From an uncultured Nitrososphaerales archaeon (GTDB lineage Archaea; Thermoproteota; Nitrososphaeria; Nitrososphaerales; Nitrososphaeraceae): DNA of 64,000 nt. Positions 7 to 30,376 of the stretch are shown piece after piece. The stretch lies in NCBI GenBank assembly GCA_963841565.1, contig CAWJCY010000001.1:122826-186825 (forward strand), read 5' to 3'. The notes under the pieces are model-generated. The model made no database searches and was not told where the DNA came from. It was given only the letters and a program-made list of their open reading frames with translations. Made by a program: the position numbers and the translations under genes. Every line of letters begins with the position of its first letter. Positions within the stretch are counted from its first letter, which is position 1.

Positions 7-2947
<2,941 letters not shown>

Positions 2948-3128: not shown

Positions 3129-3779
3129 TTAGTCCCACTTACTCCAAGCGGCCATCCATCTGTAAGTCCACGTATTGAGTTTTGCACCCAAAGCTGCTAT
3201 TGGCACAGATAGCACGGCTCCCGCGCCAGCTCCTAAGGCTACTGGACTATTATAGAATTTACCGACTTGTGGTTCGATTGGTGTCATGTATGGAGGCAGT
3301 GTTGGTCTTGGATACTTGAATGCCATTTCTAGCGGATCGCGTATGGTCAATAGGTTGATCATGTTAAACAATGGCAGTGAAAGTCCAACCAATGTTCCTC
3401 CTATTAGTATCGCCGCATGTTTGTTCCTTCTTGTTGCCCAGTAAGACAGGTCCAGCAACATTGCAGATGGAATCCACACCGGTACCGTAATGAAGTCGTA
3501 TGGATATCCAAGAGCAAACCAAGCCCCTTTCGCAACCCATGTATAAATCGTCATTATAGTGGCATAGTAGGTCGCTGTCCCTGGCACTCCCGTAAACAAC
3601 ATGTAATATATGGCACCCACAACGAGCATCGTCGACTGCGATATAGAGAACACGACGAATGAAGTCCAAGCCCAATCAGTGTAGAATATGTAGTCTCCTG
3701 CATTAATAGTCAGCAGCGTGCTGTTAACAGCTACGACAACTATGAACAGATAATGCGTTGTGCGTCTTAGCCAGACCAT
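3129..3779 (-). CDS. amoA: Archaeal ammonia monooxygenase subunit A
   Basis: MVWLRRTTHYLFIVVVAVNSTLLTINAGDYIFYTDW...WTYRWMAAWSKWD is canonical AOA AmoA; start placed at the ATG at 3779. Confidence 0.99.
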   Translation of the reverse strand: MVWLRRTTHYLFIVVVAVNSTLLTINAGDYIFYTDWAWTSFVVFSISQSTMLVVGAIYYMLFTGVPGTATYYATIMTIYTWVAKGAWFALGYPYDFITVPVWIPSAMLLDLSYWATRRNKHAAILIGGTLVGLSLPLFNMINLLTIRDPLEMAFKYPRPTLPPYMTPIEPQVGKFYNSPVALGAGAGAVLSVPIAALGAKLNTWTYRWMAAWSKWD

Positions 3780-3799
3780 TAACAACTCTCTGCTAGAGG

Positions 3800-3891: not shown

Positions 3892-4191
3892 TCAGTACGG
3901 ACGTAGAGGTTTTTCTGTTGCGATCTTCCACATCCAGAAGAAGCCTAGAGCTTCGATAACAGTAAGCACAGATAGGGCGTATATACCACTTGGCAGAGGA
4001 TATGCCCAAGGATAAACAGTTACGCCTACATAAACACCGCCAGCTGTTGCAGCCCAGCACAATGCAAAGCCTAGAATTAAGATACCCCTGTAATTTTCGA
4101 CTCTGCGTCCGATCATCTTCTCTACATCGTCTCTACTACCGCCTCCTTCAACTCGTCTGCCACCAGGCCCGAATCCCTTTGGTAAAGTCAT
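3892..4191 (-). CDS. amoX: Ammonia monooxygenase subunit X (99 aa)
   Basis: MTLPKGFG...EKMIGRRVEN, two TM helices, YPWAYPLPSG, ends EKPLRPY; directly upstream of amoA; true start at ATG 4191 rather than the ORF-track start at 4464. Confidence 0.93.
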   Translation of the reverse strand: MTLPKGFGPGGRRVEGGGSRDDVEKMIGRRVENYRGILILGFALCWAATAGGVYVGVTVYPWAYPLPSGIYALSVLTVIEALGFFWMWKIATEKPLRPY

Positions 4192-4464
4192 CTTATACAA
4201 TACCTGATCAGTACTTACCTTTTTAAATTTTGCTGTGCAAACTGAAATCAGATTGAAACCATGTATGCCAAAACAGATCCCATATCCAGGATCATCTCTA
4301 TTCAAAGTTACAAATGAAGGAAATTCTTTACGGATTATGAATTCATTTCGAAAGTTTTGATCTGCCAAAACCAAGTTGTGCTTCATGAAGGAATAGAATT
4401 TCGATCTGTCGGTAACAGCAAAATATATATCTTTGTTTCTTCTGGTATCGCTTAGAAACGACAT

Positions 4465-5019
4465 ATGATTAACAAGGCTATAGTCTTGACAGGATTGGCT
4501 GCGGTATTAGTAATGTCTAGTGCATTCGCATTTATGCCTTCTGTAGAGGGACATGGTGTTCAGGCCCAGCTCCAGAGTAGGTTTGTGAGAATTCAAGACG
4601 AATCTTTTTCTGGTCAGACACTTCAGACTGGTGATGAGCTAACAGTAACTGGAACACTACAGAGTTTGGTGAACAGACCACTTAGAGCGTGGTTGTCGCT
4701 TTTCAGCGAATCAACAAATGCAGGCAACAGGTGGGAGTTCATAGCTCGTGATCCACCCGGCAACGTCTTTGACATTGAACCAGAGGCTACAATTCCATAC
4801 TCACTAACCGTCAGAGCGCTAGAACCGGGTATTTATCATGTCCATACACAGCTCAATATTCAGACCATTGGTCCAGGACTAGGTCCAGGACAAACCGTTC
4901 AAGTGACGGGCGACCCAATTTTCAAGCCAGTTCCATGGACGAATGTGTTCTATCAAGTAATATTGATCGGAGCAGGCTTGGGCGTAACATTTGCGACTAG
5001 ACCGTGGCAAGTGATCTAG
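4465..5019 (+). CDS. amoB: Archaeal ammonia monooxygenase subunit B
   Basis: Signal peptide followed by HGVQAQLQSRF, NAGNRWE, YHVHTQ copper-site motif, C-terminal TM ending TRPWQVI. Confidence 0.98.
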   Translation: MINKAIVLTGLAAVLVMSSAFAFMPSVEGHGVQAQLQSRFVRIQDESFSGQTLQTGDELTVTGTLQSLVNRPLRAWLSLFSESTNAGNRWEFIARDPPGNVFDIEPEATIPYSLTVRALEPGIYHVHTQLNIQTIGPGLGPGQTVQVTGDPIFKPVPWTNVFYQVILIGAGLGVTFATRPWQVI

Positions 5020-29680: not shown

Positions 29681-29880
29681 ATTAATTGAAATAATTTCCT
29701 TTCCGAGTTTCAAAAGTAGGACGAACGGTTTAGTGTATAAAGACAATTGCAGATTACTTGATGTGGAGATGTGCTCAAATTTTGAGGCCAAAAATGGTGA
29801 ATTTAAGCCCTACTTTGTTATTATCCCAATCTGTTCAGACATAAACGCTTAAAAAGCCAGGATTTATTATTATTCACAAG

Positions 29881-30144
29881 ATGACATTACCAAAAGGATT
29901 TGGTGAGCAGCCCAAGAGTGGAACAAAGAGGACCTATGAGGAATGGTGGGCCACTGTTCCGAGCGATTTGAAGACAAAGACCAGAAAAGGAGATGAAAAT
30001 AACAAACCATTGCTAAATCAGGTTAATTATGTACTACTGCACCTCCATCTGGCAGGAAAACACGACGCAAAGCCAAGTCACGAAGAGCTAAAGGACTGGC
30101 TACACAGTGGACAGGTAGATGTTCTAAGAATGACCAAGAAATAA
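29881..30144 (+). CDS. Small soluble protein (87 aa) sharing the AmoX N-terminus MTLPKGFG
   Basis: ATG start, TATA-like TTAAAAA about 28 nt upstream, T-rich terminator downstream; EWW...KPLLNQVNY...WLHSGQVDVLR. Confidence 0.8.
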   Translation: MTLPKGFGEQPKSGTKRTYEEWWATVPSDLKTKTRKGDENNKPLLNQVNYVLLHLHLAGKHDAKPSHEELKDWLHSGQVDVLRMTKK

Positions 30145-30376
30145 CTTTCAGAACTGAGCAGAACTTCCATTTTTCATTTCCGATTATCTTTTTTTTCATT
30201 TTATTCATCTATCTTTAATCGAGTATCGTTCTTGATCCTTTCGAATGCAAATAATTTCCAATTGTGCTTGAAACTACAACCTAGATGATGTATATTGATT
30301 CCTTTTTTTCTCAAGCTTTTTGATGTTGGGGTAAGGTAATTGGGATTATGTTCCTAAGAACCCACCAGATCGCATC

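Follow-up and report, generated by a model that had tools for sequence, protein, structure and literature searches.

Short terminal peptides that dock or target the proteins bearing them are known from several systems. N-terminal docking peptides include the acetylated Met of Ubc12, which inserts into Dcn1, and the IAP-binding motifs, which insert into BIR domains; portable cargo tags include the cargo-loading peptides of encapsulins, the encapsulation peptides of microcompartments and the capsid-targeting sequence of phage T4. Archaeal ammonia monooxygenase (AMO) drives much of global nitrification. To our knowledge its cytoplasmic side is poorly understood, we know of no identified source of its electrons, and the literature that we found describes no soluble partner. 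Here we analyzed a 64,000-nucleotide stretch from the genome of an uncultured Nitrososphaerales archaeon (GCA_963841565.1, contig CAWJCY010000001.1; hereafter the window), in which a gene for a soluble protein of 87 amino acids (aa) begins with the same octapeptide, MTLPKGFG, as the gene for the AMO accessory subunit AmoX. The consensus of this N-terminal peptide is M-[T/S/A]-[L/M/Y]-P-K-G-[F/Y/H], followed in AmoX by a variable Gly/Ser linker, and we refer to it below as the tag.

AmoX is the protein also called orf38, and it is named AmoD in the available part of a 2026 cryo-electron microscopy preprint on N. maritimus (10.64898/2026.08.31.748207). The text of a 2012 paper reports a common start ATG and a TATA box for amoX (PMC3379541). 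The passages of the amoX literature that were covered, including those of PMC3379541 and PMC13058606, do not describe the N-terminal peptide, its acetylated form or other carriers; the figures of the N. maritimus preprint, among them its AmoD alignment (Extended Data Fig. 40), and the supplementary PDF of PMC10030591 lie outside this scope and may already show a conserved N-terminus. A full-text literature search for the strings MTLPKGFG, LPKGFG and MTLPKGY returned no paper, and matches to TLPKGF were confined to coronavirus nucleocapsid epitope papers. A docking or targeting peptide is of a kind already known; this instance of the motif, its carriers and the link of AMO to a 72-aa protein and its paired ferredoxin appear to be undescribed in the literature searched.

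The gene at 3892..4191 (minus strand) belongs to the AmoX/orf38 family, and its tag is the N-terminus of that subunit. It lies next to amoA (3129..3785, minus strand; Pfam Archaeal_AmoA, E = 1.8e-118) on the same strand, 106 bases away, and it encodes 99 aa plus a stop, comprising the tag, a Gly-rich linker, an amphipathic helix and two membrane helices. When 50 AmoX loci were aligned, a conserved ERMIGRRVEN segment was followed by two hydrophobic helices; Pfam and NCBIfam searches gave no significant match for AmoX. Class-wide counts here and below refer to 301 genomes, in which AMO is borne by four families (f1, f2, f3 and f5). AmoX relatives were found in 223 of these genomes, with 37/39 in f1, 171/180 in f2, 8/9 in f3 and 4/4 in f5, and only two weak matches (E about 0.003) fell outside the four families. 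The unpublished genomes G132, G231, G283 and G448 are included in the counts, and no claim depends on them.

The gene for the 87-aa protein (29881..30144, plus strand, stop included) starts with ATG ACA TTA CCA AAA GGA TTT GGT (29881..29904, plus strand), and amoX starts with ATG ACT TTA CCA AAG GGA TTC GGG (4168..4191, minus strand). All eight encoded residues are identical, as are 20 of the 24 bases, and the four mismatches are all synonymous, just as the original prediction had described. Its statement that the proteins are unrelated past this point also held: the next 24 bases agree at only 5/24 positions, and AmoX has two hydrophobic stretches where the 87-aa protein has none. Within the window a degenerate tag pattern matched exactly two sites, which are these two genes, and it had no match in 100 shuffles. 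Six-frame translation of the whole genome (2.05 Mb in 13 contigs, about 40% G+C, assembly contamination 4.4%) contained LPKGFG and PKGFG twice each, both at these N-termini.

Both start codons were upheld. For the 87-aa gene, a stop lies 12 codons upstream, and no other in-frame ATG, GTG or TTG precedes the conserved core. The open frame of amoX reaches 91 codons further upstream (open reading frame (ORF) 3892-4464, minus strand), to an ATG at 4464 that abuts the start of the divergent amoB (4465..5019, plus strand; Pfam Monooxygenase_B, E = 1.3e-10). In its relatives a stop is found 0-25 codons ahead of MTLPKG, and an acetylated TLPKGY peptide is present in published N. viennensis spectra, which means that the AmoX start codon is correct, that Met1 is removed and that Thr2 is acetylated. 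The 190-codon frame over amoX is not a real gene, and amoX starts at the ATG of MTLPKG. Automated gene calling on the long frame could yield a spurious 190-aa AmoX.

The tag is conserved in both families. All 18 of the best full-length loci for the 87-aa protein from other genomes start with MT[LM]PKG[FY]G and have a stop 5-15 codons upstream. Among the 50 AmoX loci, which were picked by homology, 43 start with MTLPKG[FY]; the seven untagged ones are all of the f3 and f5 loci, and they start with MAKKEAPKDE or MSKDAPRDE directly ahead of the ERMIGRR helix. The tag heads AmoX in two mesophilic families of ammonia oxidizers and is absent from the other two AmoX-bearing families. When 5.8 billion proteins were searched with the 87-aa protein, 85 of the 120 best cluster representatives had MT[LMY]PKG, and in 7 more the gene call began at the internal Met of MTMPKG; the remaining 28 lacked the tag and comprised 27 short forms and one decayed form, MAYPTGFG (P0083). 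Position 7 in this set is F, Y or H, and position 8 is mostly G or S.

A pattern search gave the same picture at the level of the order. In 241 genomes, ATGACNNTNCCNAARGGNYWY was found in 52/53 genomes of f2, once in each, and in 46/53 of f1, with one chance match elsewhere, and the reversed pattern had no match in any of the 241. A relaxed pattern, with any residues allowed between Met and Pro, matched exactly once per genome in 59 of 61 f2 genomes, and every coordinate that could be cross-checked was amoX; nearly all f1 matches again began ATG-AC. The misses of the pattern are variants, one genus having MTYPKGYS and one genome a TTG start. Residue 2 is always small, being Thr except in three of the 59 f2 matches, which have Ser or Ala. 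Among the relatives of the 87-aa protein, residues 1, 2, 4, 5, 6 and 8 have an entropy of 0 bits, and the linker past the tag has 1.1-2.5 bits per position; the polar linker in the window, EQPKSGTK (residues 9-16; 29905..29928, plus strand), differs between genera.

The codons that encode the tag vary freely. Over 69 amoX loci and 18 loci of the 87-aa type, Thr is encoded by ACT, ACA, ACC or ACG, Leu by TTA, CTT, CTA, CTC or CTG, Pro by all four of its codons, Lys by both and Gly by three or four, and the residues stay constant despite this variety. The 18 loci were all picked by homology, as were all but 29 of the amoX loci; because those 29 were chosen by the pattern itself, the 43/50 given above is the unbiased figure for amoX. 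We also compared the two genes within single genomes. Of 14 genomes attempted, 9 gave both loci (amoX was missed in 5), and in these pairs 10-24 of the 50 upstream bases, 15-22 of the 24 tag bases and 5-11 of the following 24 bases were identical. Given this absence of flanking DNA likeness, capture of the promoter or 5′ end of amoX by the soluble gene was rejected. Judged from these comparisons, selection acts on the peptide and not on the DNA, which agrees with the earlier argument from synonymous divergence against recent DNA copying.

The 87-aa protein had been described as an unknown cytoplasmic protein, but it is no orphan. By its core homology, the gene is a tagged paralog, that is, a duplicate, of a gene for a 72-aa protein that is specific to ammonia oxidizers and paired with a ferredoxin. 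Residues 16-87 match a family present in 229/301 genomes of the class (f1, 39/39; f2, 176/180; f3, 9/9; f5, 4/4; E = 1e-14 to 1e-58), which is the range of AmoX, and no member was found in the 68 genomes of eleven other families that were searched. The untagged form has 70-75 residues and starts with M-[GAV]-[RK]-x-[FY]-x-x-W-W; it is the sole form outside f1 and a second copy within f1, and in the source genome it lies at G000:C6:246481-246696. The family member of N. maritimus has 70 aa. As seen in alignment A1, which has 11 invariant columns and the core motifs WW..VP, NKPLLNQ[IV]N and ELxDW..G, in the long form 14 residues, the tag and its linker, are inserted between Met and an unchanged core that begins at Arg17 (R17-K87; 29929..30141, plus strand). 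A profile search of 1.84 billion representatives returned only 134 relatives of the 72-aa family, including a few fusions; in one distant relative, P0274, the 72-aa-like domain is fused behind a rhodanese domain.

The AlphaFold model of the 87-aa protein is of low confidence (predicted local distance difference test (pLDDT) 62) and has a disordered N-terminus, with pLDDT below 50 across most of residues 4-14, followed by helices at 19-25, 28-35, 45-57 and 67-76. The protein had no Pfam, NCBIfam, PDB-sequence or fold match, and Foldseek on the pLDDT-62 model returned nothing with E below 4. A SAP/HeH helix-extension-helix domain was considered and rejected, there being no Pfam match above the E = 0.04 level, atlas scores in the chance range (0.75-0.78) and no fold match.

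In all eight loci inspected from f1, f2, f3 and f5 (L144-L151), the untagged gene is immediately followed on its strand by a gene for a 97-100-aa ferredoxin, and in the source genome the pair (72-aa protein and 97-aa ferredoxin) occupies G000:C6:246053-246696. By comparison of listed coordinates by eye, the two genes are at most about 450 bases apart in at least 36 further genomes. The ferredoxin has the dicluster cysteine pattern CxxCxxCxxxC plus CxxxxxCxxxCP (Pfam Fer4, E = 5e-12), and in the seven other loci aligned it is 86-95% identical to the copy in the source genome. At E ≤ 1e-20 it was found in 39/39 genomes of f1, 180/180 of f2, 9/9 of f3 and 4/4 of f5, and in no other family. The tagged copy in the window is not upstream of a ferredoxin gene: it sits between small membrane ORFs and pyrI and has left the ferredoxin neighborhood. 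A predicted complex of the ferredoxin (alignment A2; two 4Fe-4S clusters) with the 87-aa protein (A1) received a score of 0.01, where the mark is 0.32, and this result weighs neither way. In the N. viennensis complexome the 97-aa ferredoxin NVIE_020610, which may be either of two ferredoxin copies, is in low-mass bands and not with AMO.

The cores of the two paralogs have stayed close. In the source genome they are identical at 64/71 residues, with 24 synonymous and 7 non-synonymous differences among 72 codons; in G120 the figure is 66/71 (L004 versus L149), and across the two genera it is 58-60/71 whichever copies are compared. Both copies within a genome thus have lineage-specific substitutions in common, and because these residues are kept in cores that differ at 24 synonymous codons, what consistently separates the paralogs is the tag with its linker. 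The pattern points to paralogs held to a common surface, by co-evolution with a shared partner or by old gene conversion.

AmoX and the 87-aa protein are not the only carriers. In seven genomes of genus g2, one of which is named Candidatus Nitrosocosmicus, a repeat protein starts with MTLPKG[YF][VK]xPNK (L111-L114, L121-L123); behind this start come eight-residue charged units (EAEEKAKR-like) in tandem, roughly 4 to 21 of them, and then a C-terminal segment that is conserved. The g2 species differ in repeat number, as would a spacer whose length can be tuned. Nitrosocosmicus has the tagged paralog as well as this repeat protein. Long proteins of more than 300-400 aa in genera g5 and g8 start with MTLPKG[FY]K, and one of them has a C-terminal DUF2795; homologues of their central domain in the source genome start with MSSTKKDQ and lack the tag. 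The MSSTKKDQ gene (roughly 210 aa) is present there as near-identical copies at G000:C3:108820-109266 and G000:C2:74603-75049, which may reflect strain heterogeneity or duplication. In all, there are four carriers, AmoX and three soluble families, and the same terminal peptide heads unrelated proteins that have close relatives without it. At least one tagged gene besides amoX was found in 27 of 54 f1 genomes (two chance MTVPKGH mini-ORFs excluded); AmoX is the only carrier found in f2. These comparisons show a strictly N-terminal position for the tag and its portability across unrelated proteins.

Several other matches to the motif were set aside. MLAPKGFG in three genomes is internal to a protein that, read from its sequence, looks like a class II tRNA synthetase, and MTVPKGH heads only two 32-aa ORFs and is taken as chance. 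A protein of G305 (L081), whose family has no AMO matches, starts with MTLPKGYVGK (MTLPKGYVGKILRVDL); it presumably is related to aldehyde:ferredoxin oxidoreductase, and its likeness to the tag was judged a chance match. One match on a viral contig is not at an ORF start.

Published cross-linking of the N. viennensis AMO (Hodgskiss et al., 2023; PMC10030591) provides information on the mature end of AmoX. Supplementary Dataset 1 of that paper, including Tables S9 and S11-S12, contains peptides that are yielded by the AmoX of genome G235. There the tag peptide TLP[K]GYGSGGR is acetylated at its N-terminus in high-confidence matches, among them K5-K13 links with 89 and 41 spectra; an acetylated N-terminus is documented in this way for AmoX of N. 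viennensis only. The acetyl-Thr end of mature AmoX and the two additional unrelated carrier families widen the case for a shared motif beyond the original prediction. Lys5 of the tag is linked to AmoC K180 (3 spectra), K10 (5) and K165 (1) in Table S9, to AmoY K79 (7), K48, K58 and K56, to AmoZ K67 (3), and to AmoX K98 (10) and a second Lys5 (1). Lys13 of the linker is linked to AmoC K10 (14), K180 (7 and 2) and K165 (4), AmoY K79 (8) and AmoA K214 (4), and there is a Lys13-Lys13 link with 14 spectra, which therefore joins two AmoX copies. With the second search engine, MeroX, the K13 partners and a "homeotypic" 13-13 link are again reported, in a simplified table that contains no link at site 5. 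In the AMO band of the native gel, the same-site links K13-K13 and K5-K5 show that a cross-linker could span the N-terminal arms of two AmoX copies. The links place the AmoX tag close to the termini of AmoC, the C-terminus of AmoY and the tail of another AmoX copy. The text of PMC10030591 that was available contains no discussion of the N-terminal AmoX peptide by its authors.

The original prediction read the octapeptide as a short N-terminal linear motif common to an AMO subunit and a cytoplasmic protein. A motif kept by selection on the peptide stands, and both conditions named there as refuting it, an unconserved motif and a start codon elsewhere, are contradicted by the data; we infer, beyond this, that a receptor recognizes the tag and that AMO is where the 87-aa protein goes. 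The suggestion in the original prediction that the 87-aa protein could regulate AMO or compete for the same binding partner would follow only from that inference. We consider it an even bet that the tag on AmoX and on the soluble proteins is a portable N-terminal docking peptide that acts at the cytoplasmic base of AMO. The reading is favored because the tag is N-terminal, acetylated and invariant at six of its seven positions, because it stands on differing spacers (a Gly/Ser arm of about 8-35 residues in AmoX, a 7-residue polar linker in the paralog and, in the Nitrosocosmicus protein, a long rod of charged repeats), and because it was added to otherwise untagged families. On this model, a small cytoplasmic 72-aa protein would have been duplicated, and the duplicate would have gained 14 residues after Met1, namely TLPKGFG and a short polar linker. 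Met removal and N-terminal acetylation would give acetyl-Thr-Leu-Pro-Lys-Gly-Phe/Tyr, the form seen for AmoX of N. viennensis. AmoX would hold the tag on its flexible Gly/Ser arm in the cytoplasm, at the base of the complex, and the tagged soluble proteins would be brought to, or compete for, the docking site of the AmoX tag, which could be AMO itself or a partner held there. The 87-aa protein would then be the ferredoxin-linked 72-aa module equipped to reach that site, where it would either serve as an additional factor or compete.

Several observations weigh against such docking. No receptor for the tag was identified, and a comparison of 10 AmoC sequences from four families, tagged and untagged, showed invariant termini and no site there that co-varies with the tag. 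The tag is not essential for catalysis, because f3 and f5 run AMO without it. Linkage of the 87-aa gene to amo, at about 25 kb, is confined to its own genus, g1. In the supplementary data of PMC10030591, AmoB K67, an exported protein and many sites of the extracellular S-layer protein are further partners of these AmoX lysines, and the S-layer protein is itself linked to the cytoplasmic tail of Amt1. Of 67 unique links, the authors could fit only 27 to their model. These cross-links show proximity in a solubilized, in-gel complex and are noisy. N. viennensis has no tagged paralog, so the data cover the AmoX tag and no soluble carrier.

The alternative that survives best, although we think it unlikely, is a processing or stability signal: the tag would set Met excision, N-terminal acetylation and half-life, as an acetylated N-degron or the opposite, and its carriers would be turned over together. 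A residue 2 that is always T, S or A, the acetylated end of mature AmoX and the strictly N-terminal position all suit such a signal. Met excision and acetylation need residue 2 alone, however, and would not account for the invariance of five further positions. Acetylation is not specific to the tag either, since AmoC has it on a different N-terminus (supplementary data of PMC10030591), and the variable flexible arm behind the tag fits reach better than degradation.

We find it quite improbable that the tag works co-translationally, either through the nascent peptide or through the opening codons of an mRNA with a short leader or none, to tune initiation or steer the ribosome to an AMO assembly zone at the membrane. 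TATA-like boxes end 25 bases before the ATG of the 87-aa gene (CTTAAAAAG; 29848..29856, plus strand; read from the sequence) and 28 bases before that of amoX (TTTAAAAAG; 4219..4227, minus strand), which implies short or absent leaders, and the mRNA of the 87-aa gene presumably has such a leader; the tag peptide is also the first to exit the ribosome. Set against this are the freely varying synonymous positions, which exclude an RNA signal, a TATA-like box of the paralog in genus g4 that lies about 10 bases further upstream, and the retention of the tag in the mature protein, where it can be cross-linked in the assembled complex.

We give the same low probability to a small membrane or lipid anchor, in which the Leu, Lys and Phe/Tyr residues, together with the acetyl group or a lipid modification of unknown kind, would pin the carriers to the inner face of the membrane without a protein receptor. 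The tag is amphipathic and N-terminal on carriers that are otherwise soluble, and the available part of the N. maritimus preprint reports lipid headgroups enriched at the cytoplasmic face of AMO (10.64898/2026.08.31.748207). Seven residues with two hydrophobic side chains would nevertheless bind a membrane weakly, the invariant Pro4, Lys5 and Gly6 point to a shaped pocket, and the matched spectra carry acetyl and cross-linker masses only. Lastly, a functionless relic in the soluble protein (a captured amoX 5′ end or chance convergence), for which the shortness of the motif and its untraceable origin could be cited, is very improbable given the lack of DNA similarity upstream or downstream, the retention of the motif in 18/18 relatives over many genera while the adjacent linker drifts, the absence of matches in shuffles and reversed-pattern controls, and its acquisition by three soluble families.

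Returning to the docking peptide, the preprint suggests where it might sit. In its available part, the N. maritimus AMO (PDB 9XJ2) comprises AmoA, AmoB, AmoC, AmoD (AmoX), AmoE, AmoF (AmoY), AmoG (AmoZ) and an "unknown subunit AmoH", which was built as poly-alanine, is "enriched in flexible loops" and assembles as a propeller-shaped trimer, sealing the complex at its base on the cytoplasmic side; AmoH touches the C-terminus of AmoC and the C-termini of AmoF and AmoG (10.64898/2026.08.31.748207). As far as these partial sources go, the C-termini of AmoC and AmoY are contacts both of AmoH and, by cross-linking, of the AmoX tag and linker, and the AmoX self-links parallel the AmoH trimer. A Gly/Ser-rich arm with a few large side chains (Leu, Lys, Phe) would resemble the description of AmoH, and because its linker is flexible, the map would show the arm as detached from the remainder of AmoX. 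We therefore put forward, as a doubtful but specific proposal, that AmoH is wholly or partly the N-terminal arm of AmoX (acetyl-TLPKGFG plus the Gly/Ser linker) and not a separate gene product, and that soil ammonia oxidizers put the same plug on soluble proteins, including the ferredoxin-linked 72-aa duplicate, which would dock into or displace the AmoX plug and so couple cytoplasmic factors to AMO.

The surroundings of the 87-aa gene give no obvious operon membership. It lies 25.7 kb from the amo genes, and its neighbors are two small membrane ORFs, the gene for subunit C of an A-type ATPase, pyrI, cutA and a pelota-like gene. Oligo-T tracts past its stop (30170..30196, plus strand; read from the sequence) are likely a terminator. 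Fourteen DNA sequencing runs hold at least half of the words of the 87-aa stretch; six RNA runs hold a share of 0.13-0.25, which is a word share only and not evidence of expression. At the start of the window, genes for the alpha and beta subunits of a 2-oxoacid:ferredoxin oxidoreductase adjoin amoA (7-2947, plus strand; Pfam POR_N, E = 6e-56, and TPP_enzyme_C, E = 1e-25).

For annotation, the tagged and untagged small genes should be kept distinct, and the long ORF over amoX should not be called as a gene. For work on AMO, the analysis supplies a short, conserved and chemically specified peptide at the cytoplasmic face, acetyl-TLPKG[F/Y], and names soluble proteins that bear it as well, among them a duplicate of a protein paired with a ferredoxin of AMO range. 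An open question on the cytoplasmic face of AMO thereby becomes accessible to bench work.

How does the tag compare with known terminal peptides? The motif X-Pro-Lys marks substrates of NTMT/NRMT alpha-N-methylation, and the tag, once Met is removed, likewise has Pro-Lys close to its N-terminus. The pair is shifted by one position, however (mature Thr-Leu-Pro-Lys), and the modification observed is acetyl, so this assignment was rejected. Class III signal peptides, those of type IV pilins and archaellins, share Lys-Gly-Phe near the N-terminus. They differ in that the soluble carriers have no hydrophobic stretch behind the motif and AmoX has a Gly/Ser linker there; in the 87-aa protein the motif is followed by EQPKSGTKRTYEE, without a hydrophobic stretch of about 20 residues, and the AmoX tag is retained, uncleaved, in the mature protein, which excludes a pilin-type signal. 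Ubc12/Dcn1 and IAP/BIR are eukaryotic and unrelated in sequence, and their receptors are known (the present searches were not aimed at those receptor domains), but like the tag they use a few residues at the extreme N-terminus of unrelated carriers, with a modified alpha-amino end that is likely recognized. Cargo tags are also unrelated in sequence, and in contrast to them the AmoX tag has an integral membrane subunit, and not a cargo, as its universal carrier, and no shell gene is implicated. They nevertheless have the same design as the AmoX tag: a short terminal peptide on a flexible linker, borne by unrelated proteins whose relatives are without it.

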